Source: Thermoanaerobaculia bacterium (GTDB lineage Bacteria; Acidobacteriota; Thermoanaerobaculia; UBA5066). Taken from it: a DNA stretch of 64,000 bases. The translations under genes were made by a program, and so were the position numbers. Location of the stretch: the NCBI GenBank assembly GCA_963816185.1, contig CAWFJJ010000005.1, positions 64,001 to 128,000 on the forward strand, in the 5' to 3' direction. The notes under the pieces are model-generated. The model ran no database searches, was not told the origin of the DNA, and saw only the letters and a list, made by a program, of their open reading frames with translations. This document shows positions 401 through 52,012 of the stretch, piece by piece (the first letter of the stretch is position 1; each line of letters starts with the position of its first letter).

Positions 401-678
401 GGATGCACGGTGCGGGGATGGTACTTGCCGTCGGGGCCGAAACCGTTCTCCCAGTCGCCGCTCGTCCACGTACCGGCCAGCCACACGCCGCCCCAGAACA
501 CGCCGCCCAAGAACGCGCCGGACCGGAAGAGGCCGCCCATCATGACGCCGGCCTCGAATTCGCCGCCGTCCCAGGTGCAGTCAAGAAGGACGGCGCCGCG
601 GTTCACCGTGCCGCGACCGAACGTCTCGTTCCGGTAAACCTCGCCCTCGCCGAGGACGAGAACGGGCGCGTCGGACAT
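397..678 (-). CDS. Small (93 aa) Gly/aromatic pentapeptide-repeat protein
   Basis: ATG at 678 directly follows the amidohydrolase stop. Sequence MSDAPVLVLG...DCTWD GGEFE AGVMM GGLFR SGAFL GGVFW GGVWL AGTWT SGDWE NGFGP. Confidence 0.7.
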   Translation of the reverse strand: MSDAPVLVLGEGEVYRNETFGRGTVNRGAVLLDCTWDGGEFEAGVMMGGLFRSGAFLGGVFWGGVWLAGTWTSGDWENGFGPDGKYHPRTVHP

Positions 679-679
679 G

Positions 680-3806: not shown

Positions 3807-3813
3807 GCGCGCC

Positions 3814-4623: not shown

Positions 4624-5450
4624 GCGGGAACGGCCGTTCGCTCGAAGTCGCAGAGCACGTGGTCGCCGAGAAAGGCGAGCGGCCGCGCGGCCAGCCGGTC
4701 GAGGCGTTCGAGCGCGCCGAGGAGGCGCGGAAAGCGCGACACGGCGGGCTCGGCGGAGCTGGGCGGAACGAAGATCCCCACGCCGCGCGTTCCGCGGAGG
4801 CGGAACCACGGCTTGAACGCACGGGCGAGCGTTCCCGGCGAGGGATACGTCACGGTGAACGACTCGCCGCCTACGCGCGCCGGTGCGGGAGAACGCGCGA
4901 GCCTCCGGAATGCCGCCCGCACCTCCCCCCGCGCCAGGAGAACGAGGATCTCGCCGGGGCAACACGGCCCGAAGACGACGAGAAGAGCGCGCCGTCCCGG
5001 GAGAAGGAGGCGCGCAAGGCCGTGCGCCACGGAGGCGTGGTCCGTCACGCAGTTCAGGGCCGCGAAGTTCGAGAACGCGCCGTCGACGCTCGTGCCTTTG
5101 CGCGCAGCCGCCCACGCGTCGACCTCCTCGAGCGAGACGCGTTCCGCCGCGACGCGATCTGCGAGGCGCGCCGCGCGCGCCTTCTCCGCGGTGCGCGCCA
5201 CCATCGCAGGGGCTCCGTCCGTGACGAGGACGCGGCGGCCGCGCTCCGCGAGAAAAAGCGCGTCGTCCCCGGTGCCGCCTCCCAGCTCGATCAGCGAGGC
5301 GCCCTGAGGGAAGGTCTTGAGGAGAGCGGTTCGGACGGCACGCCTCTGCGCGGCGACGCTCTTCCAGCCGGCGAACCGCTCGTCGAAGAGTGGCGCGAGC
5401 GCGTCGAAGGCGCGGACCGCGGGGGACAGAGTCGCCGCGTCGCCGGTCAC
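4620..5450 (-). CDS. Class I SAM-dependent methyltransferase
   Basis: AFDALAPLFDERF, LIELGGGTGDDA, DGAFSNFAALNC. GTG start overlaps the upstream TGA. Confidence 0.85.
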   Translation of the reverse strand: MTGDAATLSPAVRAFDALAPLFDERFAGWKSVAAQRRAVRTALLKTFPQGASLIELGGGTGDDALFLAERGRRVLVTDGAPAMVARTAEKARAARLADRVAAERVSLEEVDAWAAARKGTSVDGAFSNFAALNCVTDHASVAHGLARLLLPGRRALLVVFGPCCPGEILVLLARGEVRAAFRRLARSPAPARVGGESFTVTYPSPGTLARAFKPWFRLRGTRGVGIFVPPSSAEPAVSRFPRLLGALERLDRLAARPLAFLGDHVLCDFERTAVPA

Positions 5451-6922: not shown

Positions 6923-6979
6923 CGCGACTGAGACTAAGTCGGGCCGTCTTCAAATTCTGTGACGTGGGTTCCAATATCG

Positions 6980-8036
6980 TTACGTGACGAGACTCTTCAA
7001 CAAGGCGACGGCGCCTTGAAGATCGGAGGCGCCCTCCAGGCGCGAGCCGCCCGCGTCGGCCCAGGCGCGCGCGATGGCGCCGGCGCCGCCGTCGACGTGC
7101 TCCTGGGGGATTTCGCCTTTCGTGAATTCCTCGAGAAATCCCGAGGGGGAAAGCGGGACGAGCCGCGCGGGCCCGGGCTCGCGTGGCCCGAGAAGCACCG
7201 TCGAGACGCGGCGGGCGGCGCGCGCCTCGGGGCTCGAGGAAGCGAAAAGATCGATGCGGCGCTTCTCCTCGCCGCCCGAGAACGCGGCCTCCGTGCGCGA
7301 AAGGAGTCCGAGGAGCGCCGCGCTGTCCTCGCGCAGCGTCAGCTCTCGAACCGACGAGGCGAGATCGTCCGGATCGACACGCGAGACGAAGAGGCTCTCG
7401 TCGCCGAGCACCTCGAGGCCGGCGAGATGCGCGGCGGCCACGAGCGTGGACTTTCCGGCACCCCCGCCTCCGCGCACCACGACTGCCCCCTTCGGACCCT
7501 GCGACCGCGCCGGCGTGAAGCGCCCGCCAGCCCCGGCGGGCGAGAAGGACGGCGGCAGGCGCCTCGAGGACCGTGCGGGCGAGGAAGGACCTCAACGAAG
7601 AAGAAAGAGAAGGATGAAGAAAGGAGCGAGGAGAGAAAGAAAGAGATTTCTTGGAAAAGGAGAGAAGAAGCTCGGGAGCGAGGCCCGCGTGGATTCCGGC
7701 GGTCAGGAGGTCGATGCGGACGTCGAGGACGCCGGGAACCTCGCAGCGAAATTCCGCCGGCTCGTGCACCCAGCGCAGTTCTTCTTCGAATGAGACTGTG
7801 GAGGTGGCGGCTTTGCGCCGCGGCGAGTCGGGTGCCGCCGCGCCGTCCTCCTTCGCGCCTTCTAAGAAATCTTTGTCCTCCGCGTGCGCCACCTCGATCG
7901 CGATCGCGTCGCCCGCGTCACCCGCGGGAGCCGGCGCCCAGAGTTTCTCCGCCAGCTCGAAGACGAGAGGCTCGCTCGCGGTGAGCGCCACGAGATCCCC
8001 GGGCGGGGCAAAGAGACGCGTCGTCAGGTCCGCCAC
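6980..8036 (-). pseudogene. HprK-related P-loop kinase, split by a single-base frameshift near 7497 (possibly an assembly error)
   Basis: Frame 1 ends ...WRALHAGAVAG. Removing one G gives ...GPKGAVVVRGGGGAGKSTL...EVLGDE, the HprK-like H + Walker A + DD/DE layout. Confidence 0.7.
7780..7870. repeat. Copy of inverted-repeat element, in-frame inside the kinase gene
   Basis: CCTTCTAAGAAATC at 7858-7871 is identical to 48698-48711. Degenerate left arm TCTTCTTCGAATG at 7780-7792. Confidence 0.55.
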
Positions 8037-8175
8037 GCCGCGCAGCTTGCCACGGTGGTGCCTAATGCGGCAGGAGTCCGGCTCGGAGCATGCGCGGACC
8101 GTTCCGCCTGAAGGCGTAACTCTATTGGCATTTCGCGCGTCATACGAGGATGCTTTCGGCTCCGGAGGTTCTCCG

Positions 8176-37100: not shown

Positions 37101-37547
37101 ATGGACCGGCTTAGAGGCAGCGCGGAAACGACGGTGGACGAGAAGGGCCGCTTCAAGGTCCCGTCCGTCTTCCGCGGGCCGATCGAGGAGACGTTCGGGC
37201 CCGAGTTCTTCCTGACGTCCATTTCCGGTGTCGACGTTCTGATCTTTCCGATGCCCGTCTGGAACGCGCTCGAGGAGAAGCTCGCCGCGATGCCCGCGAT
37301 CCATCGCGCGAAAGCGAAGTTCCAGGAGCGTTTCAACACGTATGGACAGGTCGCGCGGATGGACGCGCAGGGCCGGCTTCTCGTGCCCTCGCTCCTGCGC
37401 GAGGTTTCGGCGCTCGAGGGCGATGCGCTCGTTCTCGGCCAGACCGACCACCTGAAGCTCGTCGATCGCGCAAAGCATCTCAAGAGCCTGCGCTCGGCCA
37501 CGATCACGGATGAGGACTACGACGAACTCGCTCGCCATCTCGTCTGA
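37101..37547 (+). CDS. mraZ: Transcriptional regulator MraZ
   Basis: VDEKGRFKVP and MDAQGRLLVP repeats; GAGGA RBS; first gene of the dcw cluster. Confidence 0.93.
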   Translation: MDRLRGSAETTVDEKGRFKVPSVFRGPIEETFGPEFFLTSISGVDVLIFPMPVWNALEEKLAAMPAIHRAKAKFQERFNTYGQVARMDAQGRLLVPSLLREVSALEGDALVLGQTDHLKLVDRAKHLKSLRSATITDEDYDELARHLV

Positions 37548-37553
37548 CCCGCC

Positions 37554-38525
37554 ATGGCCGAAGCCGGCATGGCCCACGTCCCGGTCCTGCTCCGGGAGGT
37601 CGTCGCGGCGCTCCGGCCGGAGCGCGGCGGAATCTACGTCGACGCGACGATCGGCCTCGGCGGCCACGCACAGGCGCTCCTCGAAGCCTCTCGCGACGTG
37701 CGTGTCGTCGGGATCGATCGCGATCCCGAAGCCCTGCGCCTCGCGAGAGAGCGGCTCACGGCGTTCGGGACACGCCTCGTCCTCGTGGAAGGTCGCCACG
37801 AGGACCTCGCGGAGCATCTCGATCGCCTCGGCCTCGCGCGGGTCGACGGGGTCCTCGCGGATCTCGGCGTCTCGTCGATGCAGCTCGACCGGGCGGAGCG
37901 AGGGTTTTCGTTCATGAAAGAAGGTCCGCTCGACATGCGCATGGGCGCCGACGGGCCGACGGCCGCCGACCTCGTGGCGACGGCCTCTCGCGAGGAGCTG
38001 ACGCGGATTTTCCGCGAATGGGGGGAGGAGCGCATGGCGGGACCGATCGCCCGTACGGTGGTGGAAGCTCGGAAGACGACTCCGATCCGAACGACCGGCG
38101 AGATGAGGCGGCTCGTGCTGAAGGTGATCAAGCCGCGGCGCGAGAAGCACAAGGATCCCGCGACCCGAGTCTTCCAGGCCCTGCGCATCGCGACGAATCA
38201 CGAGCTCGTCGAGCTCGAGCGGTTTCTCGACGATGCGATCGCACGACTCGCGCTCGGCGCCCGGCTCTCCGTGCTTTCGTATCACTCTCTCGAGGACCGC
38301 ATCGTCAAGCGCGTGTTCCAGCGCCACACGGCGGGCTGCACGTGCCCGCCCTCGTTCCCGGTGTGCGTGTGCTCGCGACGCCGCGTCATGGCCCTTGTCA
38401 CGCGCAAGTCCATTCGGCCCTCGCTGGCCGAGCTCGGCGGGAATCCCCGGGCGCGCTCGGCGCGGATGCGCGTGCTCGAGCGCGTCGCCGAGGACGGCGC
38501 CGGTCCGCTCACGCCTCAAGGTTAG
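37554..38525 (+). CDS. rsmH: 16S rRNA m4C1402 methyltransferase
   Basis: HVPVLL, DATIGLGGH, DLGVSSMQLD, GPLDMRM, FQALRI, SYHSLEDR, NPRARSA. Confidence 0.97.
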   Translation: MAEAGMAHVPVLLREVVAALRPERGGIYVDATIGLGGHAQALLEASRDVRVVGIDRDPEALRLARERLTAFGTRLVLVEGRHEDLAEHLDRLGLARVDGVLADLGVSSMQLDRAERGFSFMKEGPLDMRMGADGPTAADLVATASREELTRIFREWGEERMAGPIARTVVEARKTTPIRTTGEMRRLVLKVIKPRREKHKDPATRVFQALRIATNHELVELERFLDDAIARLALGARLSVLSYHSLEDRIVKRVFQRHTAGCTCPPSFPVCVCSRRRVMALVTRKSIRPSLAELGGNPRARSARMRVLERVAEDGAGPLTPQG

Positions 38526-38534
38526 GCCCAGTCC

Positions 38535-38915
38535 ATGGCCTACGCGGTCCGTCGCCCGGTCGAAAACGTCTATCTCGTGCGGGAACGCGACCGGCGGCGA
38601 ACGCGCGAGCTCGTCGCCCTCGCCCTGGCGGCGGTGCCGCCGGCGATCGTCCTCTTTCTCGCGATCTGGGCGAACCTCGAGACGGTGCGCCTCGGGTACC
38701 AGCTCGCGACGCTCTCGCGCATGCGAGAGACGCTGCTCGAGAGGAGACACCTGCTCGAGATGGACCGCGCGCAGGCTCTGGCGCTTCAACGCGTTGAGCG
38801 AATCGCGCGCGGCACGCTCGGCCTCGTGCCGCCCACTCTCGATCAGGTCATCCTCGTGAAGGACACGGCTCTCGCCCCGCCACCGGCGCCCACGCCGGGA
38901 AAGGCCCTGCCCTGA
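38535..38915 (+). CDS. ftsL: Cell division protein FtsL
   Basis: TM segment + coiled coil + 'RVERIAR..LG' between rsmH and ftsI. Confidence 0.8.
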   Translation: MAYAVRRPVENVYLVRERDRRRTRELVALALAAVPPAIVLFLAIWANLETVRLGYQLATLSRMRETLLERRHLLEMDRAQALALQRVERIARGTLGLVPPTLDQVILVKDTALAPPPAPTPGKALP

Positions 38916-40966
38916 GCGCCGCACCACGTCCGGACCGCCGGGCCCTGCTCCTGCTCGCGGGGGTCGGTCTCTGGATCCTCGTTCTTTTCGTGCGGCTCGT
39001 GGACCTGCAGGTCCTGAGGCGGGACGAGTTCCAGCGCCGCGCCCGAAGGCAGCAGGAACGCACGGTCGAGCTCGCCCCGCGGCGCGGCATCATCCAGGAC
39101 GCGGACGGCACGCTTCTGGCGGTGAACGCGCGCGCCGACTCGGTCTTCGCGATCCCGTCCGACGTGGCCGATGCCGAGAAGGAGGCCGCGCTGCTCGCGC
39201 CGCTCCTCAAGCATCCGGTGAGAGACCTTGCGAAGAAGCTCGCGAGCCCGGATCGTGACTTCATCTGGCTTTCGCGCCGCGTGAGCGACGCCGTGGCGGC
39301 GCGCGTGCGCGGTCTCGTCGCCGAAAAGCGCCTTCCGGGCATCCAGCTCGTGGCCGAGTCGACGCGCCGCTATCCCGAGGGAACGCTCGCGGCGGCCGTA
39401 CTGGGATACGTGGGAACCGACAACCAGGGGCTCGCGGGTCTCGAGTATCGCTTCGACGCCGACGTGCGCGGCAAGCCCGCGCGCGTGACGCTCCTCCGCG
39501 ACGCGGCGCAGCGGCCCTACGCGACCCGGGCTCGCGAAGGCGGCGAGGCGCCGCGCGAGGGCTACGAGGGCGCGCGGCTGACCCTCACGATCCGGACCTC
39601 GATCCAACACGCGGCCGAGCGCGAGCTCGCGAAGGTCATGGCGGAGTTCCATCCGCGCGGGGCCTCCGCAGTCGTCCTCGATCCGGCGTCGGGCGCGATC
39701 CTCGCGCTCGCCTCGTTCCCCACCTTCGATCCGAACCATTACGGCGACGTGGACGCCGAGGCACGGCGCTGCCGGCCGCTCGCGGACGTCTACGAGCCGG
39801 GCTCGACGTTCAAAATCGTGGCCGCCGCGACGGCCTTGGATTCCGGAACGATCTCTCTCGACGACCCGATCGACTGCGGCGGGGGCACGCTCACGATCGG
39901 GACGACCACGATTCACGAGCACGGCGGAATGGGCTGGAGCACTCTGACGATCGGCGACATCCTCGTCCATTCCTCGAACATCGGGATCGCGCACGTCGCA
40001 ATGACGCTCGGCCGCGCTTCGTTCTACAAGGCCGTCCGGGCGTTCGGTTTCGGGGAGAAGACGGGCGTCGAGCTGGAGGGGGAGACCGCGGGGCTGGTCG
40101 AGGAGACGTCGGGCTGGAGCGCGCTCACGCTGCCGACGATGGCGTTCGGCCAGGAGATCGGCGTCACGGTGCTTCAGATGGCGCGTGCGTACGCCGCGAT
40201 CGCGAACGGCGGCGTGCTGCCTCCGATCCATCTCGTGGATTCGATCGGTGACTCGAATCAGAGCCTGGATGCGGCGAATCGAAGAATCGAGCGGCCCGCC
40301 CCGCGGCGCCTCATGAGCGAGGACACGGCACGCCGGCTGCGGATCCTCCTCGCGAGGGTCGTCGAGATGGGAACGGGAAAAGCCGCCGCGATTCCAGGCT
40401 ACACCGCAGCCGGCAAGACGGGCACGGCGCAGAAGGCGGTGCCGGGGGCCGGGTATTCGAAGGACCGCACCGTGGCTTCCTTTATAGGATTCGCGCCCGC
40501 CGAAAAGCCGCGCGTCGTGATCGCGGTCGTCGTGGACGAGCCGAAGGGGAAGACTTACGGCGCCGAGGTCGCGGCGCCGGCCTTCTCGGCGATCGGAGCC
40601 GACGTCCTCAGGATCCTGAGGGAGCCCTCCGCTCCGGTCGACGCCACGCGTCCCTCCCTCCTCACCGCCGACCTCGGCGCGGGAGCTGCGGCCGTCGCGC
40701 TCAGCGCCCGTCTGAATGCCGACGACCTGGTGCCTGCGGCGAACCGGACCGAGAGGGCCGGCGAGAGCGCGGACCGCGTGCCGGACGTCTCCGGCAAGAG
40801 CGCGCGCGACGCCGTGCGGCTCCTCGCATCCCGCGGCCTTTCCGCGCGGCTTTCGGGAGACGGGTTCGTCGTGTCGCAGGAACCTCCCGCGGGGTCACCC
40901 GCCGAACGGGGGGGAGCGTGCGCGCTCCAGCTCGCTCAGCGGATCGCGCCGGGAGAGACGCCATGA
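38912..40966 (+). CDS. ftsI: Division transpeptidase PBP3/FtsI with C-terminal PASTA domain
   Basis: RGIIQD, RRYPEG, EPGSTFK (SxxK), SSN, GKTGT. Start placed at CTG 38912 to include the TM anchor; the first GTG is at 38990. Confidence 0.9.
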   Translation: MSAAPRPDRRALLLLAGVGLWILVLFVRLVDLQVLRRDEFQRRARRQQERTVELAPRRGIIQDADGTLLAVNARADSVFAIPSDVADAEKEAALLAPLLKHPVRDLAKKLASPDRDFIWLSRRVSDAVAARVRGLVAEKRLPGIQLVAESTRRYPEGTLAAAVLGYVGTDNQGLAGLEYRFDADVRGKPARVTLLRDAAQRPYATRAREGGEAPREGYEGARLTLTIRTSIQHAAERELAKVMAEFHPRGASAVVLDPASGAILALASFPTFDPNHYGDVDAEARRCRPLADVYEPGSTFKIVAAATALDSGTISLDDPIDCGGGTLTIGTTTIHEHGGMGWSTLTIGDILVHSSNIGIAHVAMTLGRASFYKAVRAFGFGEKTGVELEGETAGLVEETSGWSALTLPTMAFGQEIGVTVLQMARAYAAIANGGVLPPIHLVDSIGDSNQSLDAANRRIERPAPRRLMSEDTARRLRILLARVVEMGTGKAAAIPGYTAAGKTGTAQKAVPGAGYSKDRTVASFIGFAPAEKPRVVIAVVVDEPKGKTYGAEVAAPAFSAIGADVLRILREPSAPVDATRPSLLTADLGAGAAAVALSARLNADDLVPAANRTERAGESADRVPDVSGKSARDAVRLLASRGLSARLSGDGFVVSQEPPAGSPAERGGACALQLAQRIAPGETP

Positions 40967-42597
40967 AGCTCTCGACGCTTGCCTCGGATCTCGCGAACCG
41001 GCGCTCCGGCGCCCCCGGGGACCCCGACATCCTCTCCGTCACGCACGACTCGCGCGCCGCGAAGGCCGGATCGCTGTTCGCCGCATTCCCCGGCCTGAAA
41101 TCCGACGGCCGCCTATTCGTGGCCGACGCGGTCTCGCGCGGCGCCGTCGCGGCGCTCGGGCTCGCACCCGCACCCGATGCCACGGCCGTGCCGTACCTCG
41201 AGGTCGAGAACCCCCGGCGCTCGGCGGGTCTCGTGGCTTCGCGGCTCGCGGGCCGGCCGTCGGAGCGGCTCGCGATGGCGGGTGTGACCGGCACGAGCGG
41301 CAAGACGACGACGACGTACCTCCTCGACGGAATTCTCGCTCTCCGCCATCCGAAGCGCGGTTTCTTCGGGACGATCGTCTACCGCGGCGGCGGCTCGGCG
41401 ATTCCGGCGCCGCACACGACGCCGGAGGCCACGGAGCTGCAGCCGATGCTCGCGGCGCTCGTCGCGGAGGGCGGCACGGCCGCGATCCTGGAGTGCTCCT
41501 CGCATGCGCTCGTCCTCGAACGCCTCGCAGGGTGCTCGTTCGACGTCGCGATCTTCCTCAATCTCTCGCGGGATCATCTGGACTTCCACGGCGACATGGA
41601 CGATTACTTCGAGGCGAAGTCCCGCCTCTTCTCGATGCTCAAACCGGAGGGGAAGGCGGTCGTCAACCTCGGAGACGCGTACGGGCGGAAGCTCGCGAGC
41701 CGGCTGGTCGCCAAGGGAACCGTTGGATTTCTCTTAGAAGGTGAAGAGGGGACGGAGCAGACCAGGCCGGCGGCGCTTGCGGGGGCCGTGGCGCTGGCGG
41801 CGGCGGCTGCAGGGGAGACGAGCCTCTTCGCGACGGTTCTCGGCCGCGCGACGCTCGGTCTCGACGGAACGCGGCTCGAGATCGAGGTCAAGACCCCATT
41901 CCCCTTCGAAGAAAAAACAAACGTGACGCAAACCCCACTGAAGCGTGAAAGAACAGCCGAGTCTGGAGCCCTATTGACAATAGATTCCCCTCTTCTTGGA
42001 AGGTCGAATGCCGAGAACCTGCTGGCGGCTGCCGCCGCCGGCGTCGCGCTCGGCCTCTCGCCCGCCGAGATCAAGGCGGGTCTCGAGTCCGTGACGAGCG
42101 TGCCGGGGCGACTCGAGCGAATCGAGAACACGTGCGGATTCACGGTCCTCGTGGACTATGCCCACAAGCCCGCCGCCCTCGAGGGCGTGCTCAAGACGGT
42201 GAGACCGATCGCGGCGGCGGGAGGCGGCCGCCTGATCGCCGTGTTCGGGTGCGGCGGCGACCGCGACAAGGGGAAGCGCCCGGAGATGGGCCGCATTGCG
42301 GCGTTACTCGCCGACGAGGTCGTCGTGACGTCCGACAACCCGCGGTCGGAGGAGCCCGAGGCGATCCTCCGCGACGTGCGCGCGGGCGTCGAGGCGGCCG
42401 GAAAGACTGCGCATTACGTGACGGACCGCCGCGCGGCGATCGCCGCGGCTTTCGCACTTGCGCGGGTGGGGGACGTCGTCCTCGTGGCGGGCAAGGGGCA
42501 CGAGACGAGTCAGATCGCGGGCGGTCTGGAGCTGCCGTTCGACGACCGCCTCGTCGCGAAAGAGCTTCTCGAAAGTCATGAAACGGCGGCGCGATGA
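40963..42597 (+). CDS. murE: UDP-MurNAc-tripeptide ligase, with internal insertions
   Basis: [49 protein letters not shown]. Confidence 0.95.
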
Positions 42598-43679
42598 TCC
42601 TCTGGCTGCTCTACCCGCTGCACGGTCGGCTGCCGCTCTTCAATGTTTTCCGGTACATCACGTTCCGGGCAGCGAACGCGGCTCTCATGGCGCTTCTCCT
42701 GTCGATCTTCCTCGGGCCCGCCCTCATCCGCTGGCTACGCGCGAGGCAGATCGGCCAGTCCATCCGCGAGGACGGACCGAAGGGCCATCAGGTGAAAGCG
42801 GGCACGCCCACGATGGGCGGCGTCCTGATCAATCTGGCGATCGTCGTGCCCACGCTCGTGTTCGCCGACCTTTCGAATCGCTACGTATGGGTCGCCCTCG
42901 GCGCGACCGTCCTCGCCATGCTCATCGGCATCGGCGACGACTGGCGCAAGGTGTCGCGCAAGAACAACCGCGGCCTCTCGGGCCGGCAGAAGCTGGCCCT
43001 GCAAACCGCGATCGGGCTCGGCGTGGCGTGGGCGTCCGTGAAGCTCTTCGAAGCGCGCGCGGACGCCACGCAGATCGCCCTGCCGTTCCTGAAGAACGTC
43101 CACCCCGACCTCGGCCTTCTCTACATCCTCTTCGCGGCGGTCGTCGTCGTGGGCTCGTCGAACGCCGTGAACCTCACGGACGGCCTTGACGGGCTCGCGA
43201 TCGGCGCGACGCTCATCGCATCGGCCACGTTCGCGATCCTCGCGTACATCGCCGGGAACGCGAAGGCCGCGGGCTACCTCCTCGTGCCGTCCGTTCCCGG
43301 AACGGGCGAGCTCGCGGTCTTCTGCGCCGCGATCGTGGGCGCCTCGCTCGGCTTCCTCTGGTTCAACGCGTACCCGGCCGAGGTCTTCATGGGCGACACG
43401 GGCTCGCTCGCGCTCGGGGCCGCGCTCGGAACGGTCGCCGTCCTCATCAAGCAGGAGATCCTGCTCGTCCTCGTGGGCGGGCTCTTCGTCGTCGAAGCCG
43501 CTTCGGTGATCCTGCAGGTCGGCTCTTTCAAGATGCGGGGCAAGCGCATCTTTCGGATGGCGCCCCTCCACCACCACTTCGAGCTCGCCGGATGGCCGGA
43601 GTCGAAGGTCATCATCCGGTTCTGGATCGTGGCGATCCTCTTCGCGCTCTTCGCGCTTTCCACGCTGAAGCTCCGATGA
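42594..43679 (+). CDS. mraY: Phospho-N-acetylmuramoyl-pentapeptide transferase
   Basis: [38 protein letters not shown]. Confidence 0.97.
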
Positions 43680-45079
43680 CGCTCTCGCTCGGACCCGACC
43701 TGCCCGAGATCCGCTCCGCGGCGGTCTTCGGACTCGCTCGCTCGGGCCGTGCCGCGGTGGCGGCGCTCGCCGAGCGCGGAGTCGAGGTGATCGGGACGGA
43801 CGCGAAGGCCGACCTCGAAGGCCTCACCGAATGCCCCGGCGTGAGGTACGTCCTGGGCGGGCATCCCGAGTCGCTCCTCGACGGCATCGACCTCGTCGTC
43901 GTGTCGCCCGGAATTCCGCTGACGCTGCCCGTCTTCGACGCCGCGCGGGCACGCGCGCTTCCCGTCGTGGCGGAGATCGAGCTGGCCTCGCGCCTCTTGC
44001 CAGGCGTGGTCGTCGGCGTCACGGGCACGAACGGAAAGTCCACGACCACGGCGCTCGCCGCCGCGCTCCTGAAGAGTGCCGGCCATTACGCGGTGGCCTG
44101 CGGCAACTTCGGGACGCCATGGATTCACTTCGCGACGAAGGAGGGGGCGAACGGGAATGGCACCGTGCCGCGCACGTGGGTCGTCGAGCTGTCGTCCTTC
44201 CAGCTCGAGGGCATCCGGCGGTTCGCGCCCGACGTGGCGGTTCATCTGAACCTCACCCCCGATCACCTCGACCGTTACCGCTCGATGGACGACTACGGCG
44301 CGGCCAAGGCGCGCATCTTCGAGAATCAGCGCGAGGCTCAGGTCGCCGTCCTGAACGCGGACGACCCGCTCGTCGCACGCGTGAGGCCTCGCGCACGGCG
44401 CCTCGCGTTCTCGCGGCTCTGCTCGCCGGGGATGGGCGCCTGGGTCGCCGACGACCTGTTTCTCGCGGACGTGACGGGCAAGGGCCCGCGGATCGTCGCG
44501 AAGCGATCCGATCTCGCGCTGCCGGGTGCGCACAACGTCGAAAACGCGCTCGCGGCTCTCGCGGCGACACTGCCGCTCGGCGTCACGCCCGAAGCCGCCG
44601 TCGAGACGCTGCGCACGTTCCGGGGCCTGCCTCATCGCACGGCGCTCGTGCGCACGGTGAGCGGCGTCAGCTACTGGAACGACTCGAAGGGCACGAACGT
44701 GGACGCGACGCTGAAGAGCCTCGAGGGATTCGAGGACCACAGGGTACACCTCATCCTCGGCGGGAAGGACAAGGGCGACGACTTCAGGCGACTCGGCCCG
44801 CTCGCGGCGCGGAAGGCCCGGAAGATCCTGGCCATCGGCAAGGCGGCGCCCACGATCGCGCAGGCGCTCGGAAGCCTGCCCGGCGTCGCCCTCGAAGTCG
44901 TCGGGACGCTCGAGAAGGCGATCGAGGACGCCGCGGCCCACGCGGAGCCGGGAGACGCCGTGCTCCTCTCGCCGGCGTGCGCCTCGCTCGACCAGTTCCG
45001 CAACTTCGAGCATCGCGGCGAGGTGTTCGAAGCGCTCGTGAGAGCGCTCCCCGAGCGGGCCGCGGCGGGGAAACGCTGA
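43676..45079 (+). CDS. murD: UDP-MurNAc-L-Ala:D-Glu ligase
   Basis: [43 protein letters not shown]. Confidence 0.96.
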
Positions 45080-46185
45080 TGGCCCGGAAGCTGGCCTTCG
45101 ATCGCCTTCTCTTCGGGTCCGTCGTGCTCCTCGTGTTCCTGGGCCTGCTCATGATCTACAGCGCCTCGGCAATGCAGATCTACCTGCCGACGTCCGCGGC
45201 CCCGGCCGGGGCATATTTCTTCGTGATCAAGCAGACGATCGCCGTCGCCGTCGGCGGGGTCCTCGCATTCCTGGTGATGTCGATCGACTACCGCCGCCTG
45301 AACGACCCGCGCCTCATCGTCGCCCTGCTCGTCCTTCTCACGGGTGCCCTCGTCGCGGTGCTCCTTCGGGCCCCCGTAAACGGCGCGCGGCGTTGGCTGT
45401 CGTTCGGGATCGTCAAATCGATTCAGCCGTCGGAATTCGCGAAGATCGGCCTCGTCATCGCGCTCGCGGCGCTGCTGACGCGGCGGGAGCGGGAGATCAC
45501 GCACCCGACGCGGACCCTGCTTCCGATCCTCGGGCTCGTCTCCCTCTTCGCGGGGCTCGTCCTCCTCGAACCCGACTTCGGCACCGCCCTCACGTACTTC
45601 GTGATCGCCGGTGCGATGCTCTTTTTCGCAGGCTTGCCGCTGAAGTATTTTCTCGGCTCGGCGCTGCTCCTCGTGCCCACGCTCTCGGCGTTCGTGTGGA
45701 CGGCGCAATATCGGCGCGACCGTCTCCTCGCATTCCTGCACCCCGAGGCGGACCCTCTCGGCCGGGGTTTTCACGCGATCCAGTCGCTCATCGCCGTCGG
45801 CACGGGCGGCGTCACGGGTCTCGGCCTCGGGCACGGCAAGCAGAAGCTCTTCTTCCTGCCCTATCCGTACACGGACTTCATCTATGCGATCGTGGGCGAG
45901 GAGCTTGGGCTCATCGGCTGCGCCGCCGTCCTCGCGCTGTTCGGCTTCCTCTTCGCCCGAGGCGTCCGTGCCGCCGCGAATGCCCCCGACTCGTTCGGGA
46001 GGCTTCTGGGGATCGGCTTTTCCGTGATGATCGTCGTGCAGGCGCTCACGAACATCTCCGTCGTCCTTTCGCTCCTGCCCACGAAGGGAATCCCGCTGCC
46101 GTTCCTCTCGTACGGCGGGTCGGCGCTCTTCGCCGACCTCCTCGCGGTCGGGATCCTCCTCAACCTCTCGCAACACGCGTCATGA
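45079..46185 (+). CDS. ftsW: SEDS peptidoglycan polymerase FtsW
   Basis: NGARRW, IQPSEFAK, EPDFG, TDFI..IVGEELG, LPFLSYGGS. Confidence 0.95.
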   Translation: MARKLAFDRLLFGSVVLLVFLGLLMIYSASAMQIYLPTSAAPAGAYFFVIKQTIAVAVGGVLAFLVMSIDYRRLNDPRLIVALLVLLTGALVAVLLRAPVNGARRWLSFGIVKSIQPSEFAKIGLVIALAALLTRREREITHPTRTLLPILGLVSLFAGLVLLEPDFGTALTYFVIAGAMLFFAGLPLKYFLGSALLLVPTLSAFVWTAQYRRDRLLAFLHPEADPLGRGFHAIQSLIAVGTGGVTGLGLGHGKQKLFFLPYPYTDFIYAIVGEELGLIGCAAVLALFGFLFARGVRAAANAPDSFGRLLGIGFSVMIVVQALTNISVVLSLLPTKGIPLPFLSYGGSALFADLLAVGILLNLSQHAS

Positions 46186-47279
46186 CCGAGCGCGGCTTTC
46201 TCATCGCGGGCGGAGGGACGGGCGGGCACGTGTTCCCCGCGCTCGCCCTGGCTGGCGAGATCCGGCGGCGGCGTCCGGGCGCGTCCGTCGTGTTCGTGGG
46301 CACGGCGCGCGGGCTCGAGACGACTCTCGTCCCGAAGGCCGGCTTTCCCCTCGAGCTGATCCGCGCGAAGGGCCTCGTGGGCAAAGGCTGGCGCGCACGC
46401 CTCGACGGGCTCCTCGCGCTGCCTTTGGCGTTCGTCGATTCGCTGCGCCTTCTCGCGCGGCACGCCCCACGCGCCGTCGTGGGCGTCGGAGGCTATGCCT
46501 CGGGCCCGCTCGTGGCCACGGCGTGGGCTCGCCGTGTGCCGACGCTGATTCACGAGCAGAACGCGGTTCCCGGCCTCACGAACCGCCTGCTCGCGCGCGT
46601 GGCGAAACGCGTCGCGGTCGGCAACGCCCGCGGGGCCACCGCGCTGCCCGGAGCGATCGTGACGGGCAATCCGGTCCGAAAGGATTTCTTCGAGATCCCC
46701 TCCCTCGTCTCACGGGAAAGAGATCGCCGTTTCCGGCTTCTCGTCGTCGGCGGCAGCCAGGGCGCACAGATCCTGAATCGCCTCGTGCCGCCCGCGCTCG
46801 CGCGGGTCGCCGCGGCGGGGGTCGCGTTCGACGTCGTGCACCAGGCTGGAAAGGACCGCGCCGGCGAGGTCGTGACGTCGTACGCGAGGCTCGGCCTTCC
46901 GGCCGACCGCACGTTCGTCCACGAGTTTCTCGACGACATGGCCGCCGCGTACGCGGCCGCGGATCTCGTCGTCGCGCGCGCGGGCGCGATGACGATCGCG
47001 GAGATCGCGGCGGCCGGCCGCCCCGCGCTCCTCGTCCCGTTCGCGGCCGCGACGCACGCCCATCAGGAGGCGAACGCCCGCGCGCTCGAGGCGATGGGCG
47101 CGGCCGTGGTTCTCAAGGAGGCCGAAGCGACGGAGGAGGCTCTCGCGGCGGCGCTCGCGGGCCTTCTGGGCGATCCTCTGCGTCTTCTCGAGATGGGCGA
47201 GTCCGCGCGCCGCTCGGCTCATCCGGACGCGGCCTCGCGGCTGTGCGATTTGGTGTTCGAAGTCGAGGCGAAGTCGTGA
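46182..47279 (+). CDS. murG: Lipid II GlcNAc transferase
   Basis: GGGTGGHVFPA, GGYAS, HEQNAVPG, GGSQGA, RAGA, HQEANA. Confidence 0.96.
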   Translation: MTERGFLIAGGGTGGHVFPALALAGEIRRRRPGASVVFVGTARGLETTLVPKAGFPLELIRAKGLVGKGWRARLDGLLALPLAFVDSLRLLARHAPRAVVGVGGYASGPLVATAWARRVPTLIHEQNAVPGLTNRLLARVAKRVAVGNARGATALPGAIVTGNPVRKDFFEIPSLVSRERDRRFRLLVVGGSQGAQILNRLVPPALARVAAAGVAFDVVHQAGKDRAGEVVTSYARLGLPADRTFVHEFLDDMAAAYAAADLVVARAGAMTIAEIAAAGRPALLVPFAAATHAHQEANARALEAMGAAVVLKEAEATEEALAAALAGLLGDPLRLLEMGESARRSAHPDAASRLCDLVFEVEAKS

Positions 47280-48721
47280 ATTTCCTGAGGGTGAAGCGCC
47301 TTCATTTCGTGGGGATCGGCGGCATCGGGATGAGCGGCCTCGCCGAGCTCTTGAAGAGCGTCGGGCTCGAGGTGACCGGGTCGGACCTCTCGCTCGGAGA
47401 GACCACGATGCGTTTGAAGAGCCTCGGCATCCAGGTGCATCAGGGTCACCGCGCGGAAAACACGGCCGGCGCCGACGTCGTCATCTATTCGAGCGCGGTC
47501 AACGAGAGCAACGCGGAGGTCGCCGCCGCGCGGTCCGCCGGCATTCCCGTCATCAAGAGGGCCGAGATGCTCGCGGAAGTCATGCGCGTCAAGAGGGGAA
47601 TCGCGATCTCGGGCGCGCACGGCAAGACGACGACGACGTCCATGACCGGCGCGATCCTGATGGCGGCGGGCCTCGACCCCACGATCATCGTCGGCGGCCG
47701 CATGCGCGAAGTCGGCACGGCCCGGCTCGGACGCGGGGAATACCTCGTGGCCGAAGCCGACGAGTTCGACCGGTCGTTCCTGGCGCTCTCGCCGATGCTC
47801 GCGGTCGTCAACAACATCGACCTCGAGCACCTCGACACCTACCGCGACCTCGCGGACATCCAGGAGACGTTCGCACGCTTCGCGCGAAGCGTGCCGTTCT
47901 TCGGCGCCGCGATCCTCGGCCTGGACGATCCGAACGTGCAGGAGATCCGGCCTCTCATCTCGCGCCGTGTCGTGACGTTCGGCCTGACGCCTCAGGCCGA
48001 CGTGACCGTGCGGGACCTCGCTCTGGAGCGGACGGGCTCGCGGTTCGTCGCGACCGCGGGCCGCGAGTTCATGGGGCCCGTCGCGCTCAAGGTGCCGGGC
48101 CTCCATAACGTGAAGAACGCGCTCGCCGCGCTCGCCGTCGCGCGGGAGCTGTCGATTCCGTTCGGGATCGCCTCCCGCGCGCTCGAGGATTTCGCGGGCG
48201 TGATCCGGCGCTTCGAGAAAAAGGGCGAGACGGGCGGCATCATCGTGGTCGACGACTACGCGCACCACCCGACGGAGGTCGCCGCGACGCTCGCAGCCGC
48301 CCGCCAGTCGTACCCGGACCGGCGCATCGTCGCGCTCTTCCAGCCTCATCTCTATTCCCGTACGAAGGACTTCGCGGCGAACTTCGGGGCGGTATTTCTG
48401 AACGCGGACGTCCTCCTCGTGGCCCCGGTCTACGGCTCGCGGGAGGCGCCGCGCGAGGGTGTGACGGGCGCCCTCGTGGCCGACGCGGCGACGGCGCGCG
48501 GGCATCGGGCCGCGCGCTTCGTCGCCGACCGCGCGGACATCGGACGCGTTCTCGAGGAGGAATTGAAAGAGGGAGATCTTCTGCTCACGATGGGGGCCGG
48601 AGACGTGAATCAGTTCGGTGAAGAATTTCTTAGAAGGAAAGAGAACGCAGGTAACGTCACCGCGCAGCCGGCCGCCGCCGCGCAACCATCACACACCCCT
48701 TCTAAGAAATCCGAACCATGA
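47276..48721 (+). CDS. murC: UDP-MurNAc:L-Ala ligase, with repeat-derived C-terminal tail
   Basis: HFVGIGGIGMSG, GAHGKTTT, EADEFD, DDYAHHPTE, FQPH, MGAGD. Confidence 0.96.
   Translation: MNFLRVKRLHFVGIGGIGMSGLAELLKSVGLEVTGSDLSLGETTMRLKSLGIQVHQGHRAENTAGADVVIYSSAVNESNAEVAAARSAGIPVIKRAEMLAEVMRVKRGIAISGAHGKTTTTSMTGAILMAAGLDPTIIVGGRMREVGTARLGRGEYLVAEADEFDRSFLALSPMLAVVNNIDLEHLDTYRDLADIQETFARFARSVPFFGAAILGLDDPNVQEIRPLISRRVVTFGLTPQADVTVRDLALERTGSRFVATAGREFMGPVALKVPGLHNVKNALAALAVARELSIPFGIASRALEDFAGVIRRFEKKGETGGIIVVDDYAHHPTEVAATLAAARQSYPDRRIVALFQPHLYSRTKDFAANFGAVFLNADVLLVAPVYGSREAPREGVTGALVADAATARGHRAARFVADRADIGRVLEEELKEGDLLLTMGAGDVNQFGEEFLRRKENAGNVTAQPAAAAQPSHTPSKKSEP
48625..48710. repeat. 86-bp element with perfect 13-bp terminal inverted repeats, in-frame in the murC 3' end
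   Basis: ATTTCTTAGAAGG (48625-48637) ... CCTTCTAAGAAAT (48698-48710). Confidence 0.7.
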
Positions 48722-49527
48722 GCTCCTTCTACCGCCTCCCCGCCTCCCGCACCGTGCGCCCCATGCGGCGCCGCGCGGGACGGCAACTCCTCGTCCCGGG
48801 CGTGGTTTCGCTCGTCCTCGTGGTCCTCGGTCTTTCCGGCCTTCTCCTCTTGCGGACGCACCCTCGTTTCGCCGTGAATCGCGTCGTCCTCGAGGGCGTG
48901 CCTGAGGCGCGGCGATCCGAGGCGGAGGAGCTGACGGACGGCTGGATCGGACGCCCACTCCTCTTTCTGGATCTGGACGGGCCGGTGGCGGAGCTCTCGA
49001 AGCGCTCGTGGGTCGCGTCGGCGACGGCGCGCCGCATCGTGCCGGACACGATCGCCGTGCACGTCGTAGCGCGGCCGCCCGTCGCGCTCGTGGCGCGCGC
49101 CGACAGGGACGGCGAGCTGTGGACGATCGACCGCGGGGGCAGCTTCATCGGCCCCTATACGGGCCGCGCGCTCTCGAAGAGCGACGACTTCGTGGTCCTC
49201 TCCGGCGCATCCGACGCGGCAGCGCTCGGGCGCGGCGCGAAGTTCCTCGAGGCCCTTCGGAAAGAGGATCCCGAGCTCCTCGCGCGCGTGTCCGGCGTCG
49301 TCCTCGTGCCCGAAGGCTTTGCCGTGACGGACCGCGTCGCCAAGGCCCGCCTCCTGTTCGGGCCCGACGCCGCCGAGCCGCAGCGCGCCGCGCCGCTGTG
49401 GCGCGCGTTCCTCGCGCTTCGTCCCGAGCTCGACCGCAACTCCCTGCCCGCGACCGAGGCGGACCTTCGCTTTTCGGGACGCATCGTATTGAAAGCGCCC
49501 GGCGACACCGGGCACGGGAAGACCTGA
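48718..49527 (+). CDS. ftsQ: Cell division protein FtsQ/DivIB
   Basis: TM segment + POTRA (WVASATARRIVPDTI) + DLRF, located before ftsA. Confidence 0.85.
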   Translation: MSSFYRLPASRTVRPMRRRAGRQLLVPGVVSLVLVVLGLSGLLLLRTHPRFAVNRVVLEGVPEARRSEAEELTDGWIGRPLLFLDLDGPVAELSKRSWVASATARRIVPDTIAVHVVARPPVALVARADRDGELWTIDRGGSFIGPYTGRALSKSDDFVVLSGASDAAALGRGAKFLEALRKEDPELLARVSGVVLVPEGFAVTDRVAKARLLFGPDAAEPQRAAPLWRAFLALRPELDRNSLPATEADLRFSGRIVLKAPGDTGHGKT

Positions 49528-49536
49528 GGGGACTGG

Positions 49537-50784
49537 ATGCCGAAACCCGCTTCGTACCTCGTCAGCCTCGACATCGGATCGACGAAAGTCTGCGCCCTCA
49601 TCGCCGAGCCGGATGCGACGGGGCGCATCGACATCATCGGCAAGGGCACGGCCGCGCACAAGGGCGCGCGCAAGGGCGCCATCATCGACGTGCCCGTCAC
49701 GGTCGACGCGATCAAACGCGCGACGGAGGAAGCCGAGATCATGGCCGGCGCGCAGATCGAGCGTGCGGTCGTGGGCGTCGCCGGGCCGGCCGTCAAGTCG
49801 TTCAACAGCCGTCAGGTCGTCGCCGTGGCCGCGAAGAATCGCGAGATCACGCGCGAGGACATCCAGCGCTCGCTCGACGCGGCGCGCTCGGTGCCGATTC
49901 CCTCGGAGTTCGAGATCCTCCACGTCCTCCCGCGCGAGTTCGTCGTGGACGGCCAGGACGGGGTCGCCGACCCGCTCGGCATGGTGGGCAGCCGGCTCGA
50001 GGCCGACGTCCACGTCGTCACGGTGCCTGTCGCCACGACGCAGAACCTCCTGAACTGCGTGAACCGTGCCGGCGTCGAGGTGATCGAGATGGTGCTCGAG
50101 CCGCTCGCGGCGAGCGAGGCGGTGCTGACGCCGGACGAGCGCGAGCTGGGCGTCGTCCTCGCCGACATCGGTGGCGGGACGACGGAGGTCGCCGTCTGGC
50201 GCCACGGAGCGCTCGCGCACACGTCCGTCCTGCCCGTGGGCGGGGACCACTTCACGAACGACCTCGCGGTCGTCCTGAAGACCCCTGTGCCCGACGCCGA
50301 GCGGCTCAAACGCAAGTTCGGCGCGGCAATGGCCGCGCTCGTCGCAGAAAGCGAGTCGCTCGACGTGCCGCTCACGGGCGGGCGCGGCGTCCATCCCGTC
50401 AAGCGGCGCGAGATCGCCGAGATCCTCCAGCCGCGCGCCGAGGAGCTTCTCACGCTCCTCTGGGAGGAGTCGGTCCGGGAGGTTCCGGCGGGCGAGCTGC
50501 GCGCCGGACTCGTTCTCACGGGGGGCGGCGCCGAGCTGGACGGCCTCCTGGAGGTCGCCGAGCAGGTCCTCGGAGTGGCCGTACGCCGCGGCGTGCCGCG
50601 CGGCCTCGGAGGATTGACGGACGTCATCGCCTCGCCGGAGTGGGCCTGTGCGGCGGGTCTCCTGCTCTATGGCCGCGGCAGCGCCGCCGCGTCGAAGAAG
50701 CGCTCGCGCCCTGCCGGTCCTGGACTTTTCGAGAAGCTCAAAGGCTCCCTCAAGAACTTATTCCCCGCGTCCACCGCTCTGTGA
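49537..50784 (+). CDS. ftsA: Cell division protein FtsA
   Basis: [31 protein letters not shown]-terminal amphipathic helix. Confidence 0.96.
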
Positions 50785-50803
50785 TATCGATGGAGGAAAG
50801 AAC

Positions 50804-52012
50804 ATGATCCTTTTCGACGACGAGCCCCGTCCGTCGCTCCCGATCTCCCTGAACGACGAGGTTCCTCCTCCCGCCAAGATCAAGGTCGTGGGCGTGGGCG
50901 GGGGCGGCGGCAACGCCGTCAACCGCATGATCCAGGCCGGCATCAAGGGGATCGACTTCGTGGCCGCGAATACCGACCTCCAGGTGCTCCGGGTGAACCG
51001 GGCCGCAACGAAGCTGCAGCTCGGCCTCACGACGTCGCGAGGCATGGGCGCGGGATCGAACCCCGACGTCGGCCGCAATGCCGCGCTCGAGGACGCCGAG
51101 AGAATCACGCAAGTCCTCTCGGGCTCGGACATGGTCTTCGTGACGGCGGGCATGGGGGGCGGGACGGGCACAGGGGCGGCTCCGGTCGTGGCGCGGCTCG
51201 CGTCCGAGGCGGGCGCGCTCGTCGTCGCCATCGTGTCGAAGCCGTTCGCCTTCGAAGGGCGGCGGAAGCTGCGCTACGCCGAGGACGGCATCGCCGAGCT
51301 GCGCGAGTACGTCGACACGCTCATCACGATCCCGAACGAGCGACTCTACTCGTTCGTGGAGCGGAACGTGACGACCTGGGAGGCGTTCCGCATCGCGGAC
51401 GACGTGCTCCGGCAGGCCGTGCAGGGCATCAGCGACCTCATCACGGTACCCGGCGTCGTGAACCTCGACTTCGCCGACGTGAAGACGGTCATGGAGAACA
51501 TGGGCATGGCCCTCATGGGCACGGGCACCGCGTCGGGCGAGCACCGGGCCGTCGAGGCCGCGCAGCGCGCGATCTCGAACCCGCTCCTCGAAGAGCAGTC
51601 CATCCAGGGCGCGCGCGCCATCCTCATCAACGTGACCGGCGGCGACGACCTCACGCTCGCCGAGGTGAACGAGGCGTGCGCGATCATCCAGCAGGCGGCG
51701 GACGAGGAGGCGAACGTGATCTTCGGCCTCGTGATGGACAAGGACATGAAGGACGAGGTGAAGATCAGCGTCATCGCGACCGGGTTCGACGCTCCGGCGG
51801 CTCTCGCCTCGCGCCGCGAGGTGTCGCTCCCCGTCACGCCGAGCGGCGCGCGGCCGGCGGCCGAGAGGGAGCGCGAGCGCGAACGCGCGCGCACGGCTCC
51901 GGACACACCGATTCCGGAAGACCAGGGCTACGGCGTGAACCTGATCAACGTGCGCGACCCGCGCGAGGACATCTTCGACATCCCCACGTTCCTCCGCCGT
52001 CAGATGGACTGA
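50804..52012 (+). CDS. ftsZ: Cell division protein FtsZ
   Basis: [25 protein letters not shown]-terminal [11 protein letters not shown]; GGAGG RBS. Confidence 0.98.

Follow-up and report, generated by a model that had tools for sequence, protein, structure and literature searches.

Short palindromic repeats in Thermoanaerobaculia, between genes and in frame within them

This study analysed a perfect inverted repeat at the 3' end of murC in a Thermoanaerobaculia bacterium, within a 64,000-nt stretch of DNA with a GC content of ~69% (contig CAWFJJ010000005.1, positions 64,001–128,000, assembly GCA_963816185.1), which is called the window below and whose own numbering is used. The relatives of the MurC and MurE proteins encoded in the window place it in this class of Acidobacteriota. 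The inverted repeat probably belongs to a family of short palindromic repeats that is old and confined to one class, and which resembles by behaviour the Rickettsia palindromic elements (RPEs) and the miniature transposable elements with inverted repeats (MITEs). The copies of this RPE/MITE-like family, spread over the genomes of a group of Acidobacteriota from soil and sediment, are mostly intergenic and sometimes in frame, and we do not file the family as a member of any named one.

The murC–ftsQ inverted repeat and its family

The two arms, ATTTCTTAGAAGG at 48625–48637 and CCTTCTAAGAAAT at 48698–48710, are complementary at 13 of 13 positions across a 60-nt spacer, in agreement with the original prediction of a perfect 13-bp inverted repeat around a 60-bp core, and each arm holds a 4-1-4 palindrome, TTCT-N-AGAA, with a 1-nt loop. 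The inverted repeat falls within the last 100 nt of murC, and the whole copy (48615–48713) encodes the last ~28 residues of MurC, whose C-terminal tail reads ...EEFLRRKENAGNVTAQPAAAAQPSHTPSKKSEP up to the stop codon. This stop codon, TGA, overlaps the ATG of ftsQ (ATGA at 48718–48721). When up to two mismatches were allowed, the 13-mer occurred five times in the window (7858+, 41729−, 41903+, 48625− and 48698+) against 0.08 expected, and none of 100 shuffles reached five. The shorter motif TTCTTRGAAGG, with up to one mismatch, gave seven matches (two in murC, three in murE, one at 7858 and one at 56226) against 0.60 expected, a number likewise reached by 0/100 shuffles. By itself, CTTCGAAG showed no enrichment in the window (5 occurrences where 2.42 were expected, with 10/100 shuffles reaching 5).

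Species-representative genomes were scanned with a paired pattern, namely ATTTCTTAGAAGG, 45–75 nt of any sequence and then TTCBAAGAA, which returned at least 114 stretches. Among the 114 listed, 110 belonged to 23 assemblies labelled Thermoanaerobaculia, Acidobacteriota or Acidobacteria; these host assemblies have a high GC content (69–72%) and many loci each, up to 14 among the matches listed. The other four were low-GC (22–52%) matches in unrelated organisms, about the number expected by chance. The genome-wide enrichment that had been proposed as a check was therefore found, with 110 of the 114 listed matches in one bacterial class and many loci per genome. At least 14 scan loci (one of them an overlapping duplicate) lay on a single 3.67-Mb contig, CAWCSP010000004.1, and the repeat-bearing assemblies include contigs of 3.7 and 3.9 Mb.

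The scan yielded 121 distinct pattern copies, with 87 nt (26 copies) and 86 nt (13 copies) as the commonest lengths; their range of 73–97 nt is set by the pattern itself, which required perfect arms with one arm fixed. An nhmmer profile of the family was built from the distinct pattern copies and run on the window and 76 loci, together 1,352,609 bases, at E below 1e-3. It detected 175 copies, 132 near full length and 43 partial, and the length of the profile copies (~90–180 nt), like that of the pattern copies, leaves no room for a gene. With one seeded copy per locus set aside, the extra copies amounted to one per 13.8 kb, and the window holds three copies per 64 kb (two full and one half). 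These data show that the family is dispersed at roughly one copy per 14–21 kb, densities that are upper estimates because the DNA was picked for holding a copy.

The consensus ends are gaaGATTTCTTAGAAGGtgaAgaGggg on the left and ccCctcttcaCCTTCTAAGAAAatcttc on the right, inverted over ~17–25 nt at each end. A whole copy of ~90–110 bp thus consists of AT-rich ends of ~25 nt each and a GC-rich middle of ~40–60 bp that differs from copy to copy (71% GC in the middle against 31% in the arms). A k-mer search found no specific motif common to the middles, only GC-rich low-complexity words at 2–4 times the background, and the central 40 nt of the 87-mers were identical in register at 0.354 against ~0.32 out of register. 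The core GCCGCCGCGC, which had been taken as shared between the murC copy and the one at 7858, is just such GC-rich low complexity, and only the ends are conserved. The whole window had no Rfam match at the gathering score. When the murC copy and 12 loci were compared with Rfam at an E-value threshold, the only candidates were sub-threshold hairpin-like matches to eukaryotic miRNA-precursor models, which were rejected.

The family is probably undescribed. A full-text literature search, with subscription journals and supplementary files outside its reach, found no earlier description of such a family in Thermoanaerobaculia or Acidobacteria, and the available text of a large MITE survey mentions Acidobacteria once, for phage MITEs (PMC11602168).

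The tail encoded by the murC copy is an addition to the protein. The 120 best MurC relatives were sorted by what comes after the conserved GAGD...FGEE, and 99 of them ended within 14 residues, most commonly in a sequence like WLRAGGAA. Sixteen carried the right-arm peptide, and five had a long tail without it. The 16 tailed proteins are among the closest relatives, and their tails begin with FLR... and finish in PSKK; in four of them, FEEK or FEER stands in place of PSKK, the same DNA being read in another frame, and the middles of the tails vary in sequence and length. The tail peptide is as it had originally been given, and the proposed comparison with orthologues gave the same answer for both proteins, in that distant MurC and MurE orthologues are without the segments. 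In the DNA of one relative (L063), the same copy occupies the same murC–ftsQ site, with nearly intact arms and a middle that is ~80% identical. This relative also has ~70 nt of extra spacer 3' of the shared copy (~1980–2055), and its murC and ftsQ are without the overlap found in the window.

At this junction, the RNA of 48605–48730 had a computed folding energy of −40.1 kcal/mol (z −3.65), which none of 200 shuffles equalled, and the stem extends in the computed fold to the start of ftsQ. Because the predicted stem reaches this start, it is reasonable to infer, for the murC copy only, that the translation of ftsQ is coupled to the end of murC: the arms would pair in the mRNA around the ftsQ start, and ribosomes finishing the MurC tail would open the stem. 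A promoter and terminator scan found no promoter-like or terminator-like site in 48300–49000.

Copies between genes and within them

Among 124 distinct near-full copies, 71 were intergenic, 27 internal to a gene, 19 over the 3' end and seven over the 5' end of a gene. Genes were called with our own simple caller trained on the loci, which reproduces the dcw genes of the window and called 88% of the DNA coding; copies counted as internal had 30 nt or more of the called gene on either side. A stricter test, in which the 150-nt flanks on either side had to show a coding signal in one and the same frame, placed 10 of 125 copies internal and in frame, 26 where an open reading frame (ORF) reads into the copy, and 89 outside. 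The intergenic copies lay at a median of 31 nt from the upstream stop codon and 77 nt from the downstream start, with no strong bias in the orientation of the flanking genes. Twelve genes stop at a TAG 11–23 nt into a copy, which is the position of the TAG of the left arm. Since most copies fall between genes, near an upstream stop codon, the family is mainly extragenic, and in-frame copies are a sizeable minority. The original picture of an element living in frame inside genes therefore stands as regards the many unrelated housekeeping hosts, although this state is the minority one (27/124 internal).

At least one of the six frames is free of stop codons in 118 of 126 copies, because the GC-rich middle contains few stops and each arm closes only one frame of three. 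Clear Pfam domains were found in 23 of the 24 host ORFs scanned. Among the proteins encoded by the host genes are alanyl-tRNA synthetase, ABC-F ATPases, biotin carboxylase, HisA, a DUF2400 protein, an M61 peptidase, RNase R (with the copy inside the RNB domain), methionyl-tRNA formyltransferase Fmt (between its two domains), a GT2 glycosyltransferase, a Ser/Thr kinase and an Asp-Al_Ex permease. Compared with solved homologues, biotin carboxylase and Fmt are each a net 28 aa longer at the copy, and RNase R a net 20 aa. Translated copies are read in several frames and from either strand (DFLEG, FLRR, ISSKG, PSKK, HLLRK, FEEK), and their middle peptides are unrelated; what they have in common is therefore DNA and not peptide.

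In murE, the related arms that had been reported were recovered as the 13-mer matches at 41729− and 41903+ and as the left half of a profile copy (E 2.2e-6); a further nhmmer match at 41991–42038 was marginal (E 0.2). An alignment of 106 full-length relatives showed that both MurE insertions are clade-specific, being absent from distant relatives and variable in close ones. Insertion 1 comes after the native GF(F/L)LEG, at the point where the Mur_ligase_M match ends (profile position 139 of 200), and insertion 2 consists of TPFPFEEK...GA ahead of a native segment. Among close relatives, insertion 2 is absent in P0139, P0140, P0142 and P0158 and doubled in P0129 and P0131. The AlphaFold (AF2) model of the window MurE had a mean predicted local distance difference test (pLDDT) score of 86.3, with values below 50 only at residues 261–277 and 279–286 (insertion 1) and 314–334 (insertion 2); the strands between the insertions were predicted with confidence, and FLLEG forms the strand 253–259 of the model. 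The native residues under the arms (EEFLR in MurC, FLLEG and PLLGR in MurE) are spelled with rare AT-rich codons. The TTA codon read in the murE and kinase arms accounts for 6 of the 19,987 codons in the called genes of the window, and the earlier statement that it is otherwise very rare was thus correct. At the two insertion sites, one MurE relative of 610 aa (P0213) has GVCLEGEEG-like units repeated several times in tandem and the QFTFKA unit in duplicate, both of which are likely to come from local amplification of arm-encoded segments.

The copy at 7858 had been assigned to a kinase gene, with a degenerate partner arm about 90 bp away. The kinase gene is right and the partner arm is present, but the gene is frame-broken in the window and the weaker partner lies ~70 nt away. 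On the minus strand, the copy reads DFLEGAKEDGAAAPDSPRRKAATSTVSFEEE (DFLEG...SFEEE). The assignment of this DNA to an HprK-related kinase gene rests on the phase of the GC content at third codon positions (GC3), on an intact orthologue and on a weak domain match. The GC3 phase marks 7620–8040 as coding on the minus strand. The minus-strand reading ...AEDKDFLEGAKEDGAAAPDSPRRKAATSTVSFEEELRW... matches the N-terminus of the intact 352-aa orthologue L060 with 63% identity over 191 aligned positions, and the C-terminal half matches its P-loop half in another frame (85% over 157 residues), such that residues 1–181 of L060 fit the frame 6795–8036 and residues 196–352 the frame 6980–7591. The domain match is to TIGR04352 (HprK-related kinase A), at 22.5 bits against a cut-off of 200. 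The orthologue L060 carries the same repeat copy. The repeat has nothing to do with the frame change, which falls somewhere between ~7480 and ~7600, in the Gly-rich region of the P-loop; the split gene could be a pseudogene or an assembly error. The plus-strand ORF 7651–12450 was rejected as the gene over 7858, since the CarboxypepD_reg protein in it starts near 8203 and 7651–8202 is non-coding on that strand. A solo arm-like sequence at 7639–7662 has 18-nt arms that are 83% complementary to 7860–7877. The features of the window are collected in Table 1.

Table 1. Repeat copies, arms, insertions and host genes in the window, with the evidence for each.
Feature	Position	Strand	Evidence
Full-length repeat copy, murC–ftsQ junction	48615..48713	.	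nhmmer E 1.7e-12, model positions 13–114
Left arm ATTTCTTAGAAGG, read (E)FLRR in murC	48625..48637	+	13-mer search, inverted-repeat search
Right arm CCTTCTAAGAAAT, read PSKKS in murC	48698..48710	+	7 nt before ftsQ ATG
murC, UDP-N-acetylmuramate–L-alanine ligase	47276..48721	+	Pfam Mur_ligase, Mur_ligase_M, Mur_ligase_C; orthologues; gene call
ftsQ	48718..49527	+	POTRA_1 22.7 bits (cut-off 23, weak) and place in dcw cluster
murE	40963..42597	+	Pfam; orthologues
Left half of repeat copy in murE, arm GGATTTCTCTTAGAAGG read GFLLEG	41718..41778	+	nhmmer E 2.2e-6, model positions 7–65
MurE insertion 1 (27 residues)	41743..41820	+	alignment of 106 orthologues; without counterpart in distant ones
Right-end-like CCCCATTCCCCTTCGAAGAAAAAAC in murE, read TPFPFEEK, starts insertion 2	41893..41917	+	resembles family right-end consensus
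MurE insertion 2 (21 residues)	41902..41964	+	alignment of 106 orthologues
Arm-like TTCTTGGAAGG on native MurE residues PLLGR	41991..42006	+	0 mismatches to TTCTTRGAAGG
Full-length repeat copy, N-terminal part of HprK-related kinase gene	7773..7881	.	nhmmer E 1.6e-13, model positions 5–111
HprK-related kinase gene with frame break ~7480–7600	6980..8036	−	frames of orthologue L060; TIGR04352 below cut-off
Solo arm-like GATTTCTTGGAAAAGG, GA-rich tract of kinase gene, minus strand reads SFSKKS	7639..7662	.	nhmmer not significant, E 6

Some further observations concern the surroundings of these copies. Long tracts rich in GA, and hence in TC on the opposite strand, lie next to the arms, at 7598–7665 in the window and in the flanks of many loci (e.g., L023, L027 and L031), and are translated into poly-Ser or Lys/Glu-rich runs, such as KSSSS in HisA and SLSFSPRSF in the kinase. 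The kinase gene is grouped, within positions 1–8036, with two B12-binding radical S-adenosylmethionine (SAM) genes (2439–3806 and 5447–6922) and three methyltransferase genes (1756–2442, 3814–4623 and 4620–5450), and this group looks like a peptide-modification cluster of the kind that makes ribosomally synthesised and post-translationally modified peptides. On the other side, 8203–12450 encodes a protein of ~1415 aa with at least 12 CarboxypepD_reg repeats and a signal-peptide-like start. About 60 nt past its stop codon, a GC hairpin (12513–12522/12527–12536) is adjoined by a 22-nt inverted repeat (12553–12574/12606–12627, 95% complementary, 31-nt spacer), both upstream of the gene at 12662. 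The dcw cluster of the window (37134–52012) has the order mraZ-rsmH-ftsI-murE-mraY-murD-ftsW-murG-murC-ftsQ-ftsA-ftsZ, with no murF between murE and mraY and no murB or ddl between murC and ftsQ.

Origin of the repeats and competing explanations

Orthologous sites differ in having or lacking whole units of the family. Two convergent genes are separated by a 97-nt unit in L029, but their stop codons abut in L066 (TGA next to CTA), and in L021, ~125 nt including a copy separates two genes that overlap by ATGA in L031, the same type of junction as that of murC and ftsQ. The pair L064 and L017 was rejected as a third empty site, the copy being present in both. At one orthologous intergenic site, three genomes have a full copy (L022, 7138–7255), the left half only (L049, ~7210–7260) and a longer copy (L013, 12916–13123). 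The left half at this site contains a 10-bp GC stem, a tetraloop and then TTT, like an intrinsic terminator of the upstream gene. The consensus of the sequences flanking the copies is GA/TC-rich and not random. Close relatives share their copies site by site, which suggests an old, vertically transmitted family that has now and then gained or lost a unit; no recent copying was seen.

The hypothesis that the copies act as hairpins was rejected, since the folding of the middles did not exceed that of shuffles (median z 0.08; 6% were below −2) and the arms showed no covariation. Whole copies do fold well (median z −3.16), because inverted arms were what they had been selected for. Among arm positions, 86 had changed on one side only and six on both sides, two of these in a compensatory manner; the subterminal identity between left and right was 6.34/12 within the same copy against 6.26 with permuted partners, and 254/1000 permutations reached the observed value. 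Even with the bias from a pattern that fixed one arm, these statistics give no support for selection on pairing, and they agree with two ends recognised separately as duplex DNA.

Based on this evidence, the following course of events may be proposed. A trans-acting enzyme would have recognised both ends as double-stranded DNA and spread the units; the independent change of the arms gives no hint of a hairpin, and the positions shared by copies in related species would make the spreading ancient. The ends would be maintained by selection or copy correction, while the middles drift. Where copies have come to lie in tolerant places, such as C-termini, domain linkers and surface loops, they are read in frame and add ~20–28 residues that are predicted with low confidence, as in the MurC tail and the MurE insertions.

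Several results weigh against this account, in which the mobility of the family is itself inferred. No target-site duplication was found in the two pairs of filled and empty sites (L029/L066 and L021/L031, with flank identities of 86–91%). The sampled DNA, namely 47 genes that lie between neighbouring copies and the window genes scanned with Pfam and NCBIfam, contained no transposase and no RAYT-like gene, RAYT being the transposase associated with repetitive extragenic palindromic (REP) sequences. The mobiliser that had been suggested as a target of search was thus found in neither place. The middles of 89 of the 121 copies match no other copy, and the 32 that match at E below 1e-3 do so mostly with orthologues; middles that are unrelated between paralogous copies are unlike a typical MITE and give no sign of recent copying. 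In distant orthologues, residues under the arms are already present (EEWLR in MurC, FSLEG and PLLGR in MurE). Furthermore, the conservation of the arms and the counts of arm changes are biased, because the copies were found by a pattern demanding perfect arms, and the gene calls come from a home-made caller. The earlier description of a MITE-like family consequently holds for a paired, dispersed and enriched repeat, but MITE status is not established, with neither target-site duplication nor transposase found.

A further point is the copy in hisA of locus L014 (9700–10485), which has perfect arms and a length of 87 nt and is not an insertion. The encoded stretch VEDFLEGVSTARAVVGSLPFLDRPAFTHLLRK aligns with solved HisA/PriA proteins with only five extra residues, and it is present in 120/120 of the HisA orthologues listed (P0244–P0363). 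The HisA model had a mean pLDDT of 86.4, and the repeat stretch forms a confident helix-strand-helix unit with block pLDDT values of 81–86. The supposed element in HisA is therefore native protein sequence. Eight HisA orthologues contain a degenerate second copy of it in tandem. The hisA middle showed weak similarity to the other copies, with z above 3 in 2 of 119 and above 2 in 11, and with in-register identities of 0.326–0.39. The arms may have been written onto native codons, insertion may prefer arm-like sites, or a hisA fragment may have fed the family.

Because the arms in hisA, MurC and MurE sit on native residues, an explanation in terms of the host has to be kept alive, namely that the repeats are not parasites but a cis signal selected by the host, kept at hundreds of places and writable onto coding sequence, with mobility as past history. 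Such a signal could be a bipartite site in which two TTCTnAGAA palindromes ~75 bp apart serve a dimeric DNA-binding protein, or an mRNA stem for 3'-end protection or RNase processing. We consider it unlikely, although a good number of features are in accordance with it: at orthologous sites, the middles drift but the ends stay conserved (in the MurC tails and between the window and L063), the arms are laid on native codons of hisA, murE and murC by means of very rare synonymous codons, the typical site is 31 nt past a stop codon, each arm has its 4-1-4 palindrome, and neither transposase nor target-site duplication came to light. However, 97-nt units occur whole, together with their middles, at some sites and are missing from the orthologous ones, and ~84 nt of extra sequence inside essential genes is hard to justify as a regulatory site. 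An RNA or transcription signal also fits poorly with arms that do not change in a compensatory way, with middles that fold like shuffles (median z 0.08), with the empty promoter and terminator scan of 48300–49000 and with the lack of any Rfam match. A more far-reaching version, which we regard as distinctly improbable, is that the conserved ends are an active bipartite signal maintained by the host and laid over coding sequence, and that the family and core proteins have exchanged material, either because a repeat copy became the structural beta-alpha unit of HisA or because an arm-bracketed hisA fragment seeded part of the family. If this were true, short repeats and core protein architecture would feed each other in this clade, beyond the surface-loop insertions of Rickettsia.

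Selection on the peptide, with the segments as protein-level linkers and tails and the DNA repeat as a by-product of similar coding, would account for the recurrent Ala/Pro/Ser/Lys/Glu-rich tails and loops (PSKKS, FLEGEEG, poly-Ser). It is very improbable in view of the 71 of 124 copies that are intergenic, the several frames and both strands used by the translated copies, and the orthologous MurC tails that change frame yet retain the DNA motif. That AT-rich low complexity in a GC-rich genome produced the repeat by chance or through an artefact of assembly is suggested only by the shortness of the arms; with the shuffle controls, nhmmer E values down to 1e-13 and the occurrence of the repeat in 23 independent assemblies, the probability of this explanation is close to nil. 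We therefore continue to favour an old family of palindromic repeats that was once spread through the genomes of this class.

Comparison with known repeats and significance

To our knowledge, no enzyme that mobilises RPEs has been described. According to a review, many RPEs lie in frame in housekeeping genes as fusions compatible with folding, other copies are intergenic, and each family corresponds to a conserved peptide (PMC10969869). The present repeats are like RPEs in being short, dispersed and palindromic, in frame in unrelated housekeeping genes and elsewhere intergenic. They differ from the RPEs so described in that only the ends are conserved, with unrelated middles read in several frames in place of one conserved peptide per family, and the in-frame share is lower here (27/124 internal), a comparison of behaviour and not of sequence. 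The RPE hosts are Rickettsia, whereas the hosts here are free-living Acidobacteriota with 69–72% GC, and membership in the RPEs is not claimed because the host belongs to a different phylum.

The QMITE1 and QMITE2 elements of Coxiella burnetii are described as often lying across the 3' end of a gene, to which they add C-terminal residues or the stop codon, as having direct repeats of 2–3 or 7–11 nt at each end and as being alike over their full length (PMC5896051). Like MITEs and QMITEs, the present repeats are small and non-coding, have no transposase gene, carry terminal inverted repeats and occur in many dispersed copies, numbering tens to hundreds. The overlap with 3' ends that this text reports for QMITEs is seen here in 19/124 copies, with 12 genes ending at the TAG of the left arm. 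Unlike the QMITEs of that text, they showed no target duplication in two pairs, have unrelated middles and had no related insertion sequence in the sampled DNA.

REP sequences are hairpin-forming palindromes of 20–40 bp with a GTAG or CGTC tag (PMC3733652). The family resembles REPs and the composite units made of them (BIMEs and REPINs) in having conserved inverted unit pairs with a variable spacer, mostly just outside genes, that are ancient and vertically kept, and in having half-units too (43/175 copies are partial, comparable to single REPs). Unlike the REPs and REPINs described there, a single arm here cannot form a hairpin, its loop being 1 nt, and there is neither a GTAG or CGTC tag nor covariation. 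REPs and REPINs have RAYT transposases, whereas no RAYT-like gene was seen in the DNA sampled here. Mycobacterial interspersed repetitive units (MIRUs) are tandem direct repeats between operon genes of a high-GC genome, with small reading frames that overlap the flanking genes. As with MIRUs, the present copies are intergenic in operons and overlap junctions, as at murC–ftsQ and at L021/L031, but they are units with inverted repeats and not tandem direct repeats. They are also unlike an intrinsic terminator, since no terminator-like site was found in 48300–49000 and the middles do not fold beyond shuffles, although one locus has such a hairpin inside its copy.

Palindromic repeats read in frame have mostly been regarded as a peculiarity of Rickettsia, intracellular bacteria with a decaying genome. 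The same behaviour is now seen in free-living, GC-rich Acidobacteriota, in cell-wall ligases, alanyl-tRNA synthetase, RNase R, Fmt and biotin carboxylase, among others. Because in-frame copies sit in core genes of Acidobacteriota, short repeats may more generally give rise to new protein loops, linkers and tails. For annotation, the family accounts for AT-rich islands, runs of rare codons, long C-terminal tails and differences in length between orthologues in metagenome assemblies of Thermoanaerobaculia. The conservation of the ends only, together with the case of HisA, provides a concrete system for studying how repeats persist and whether they turn functional.

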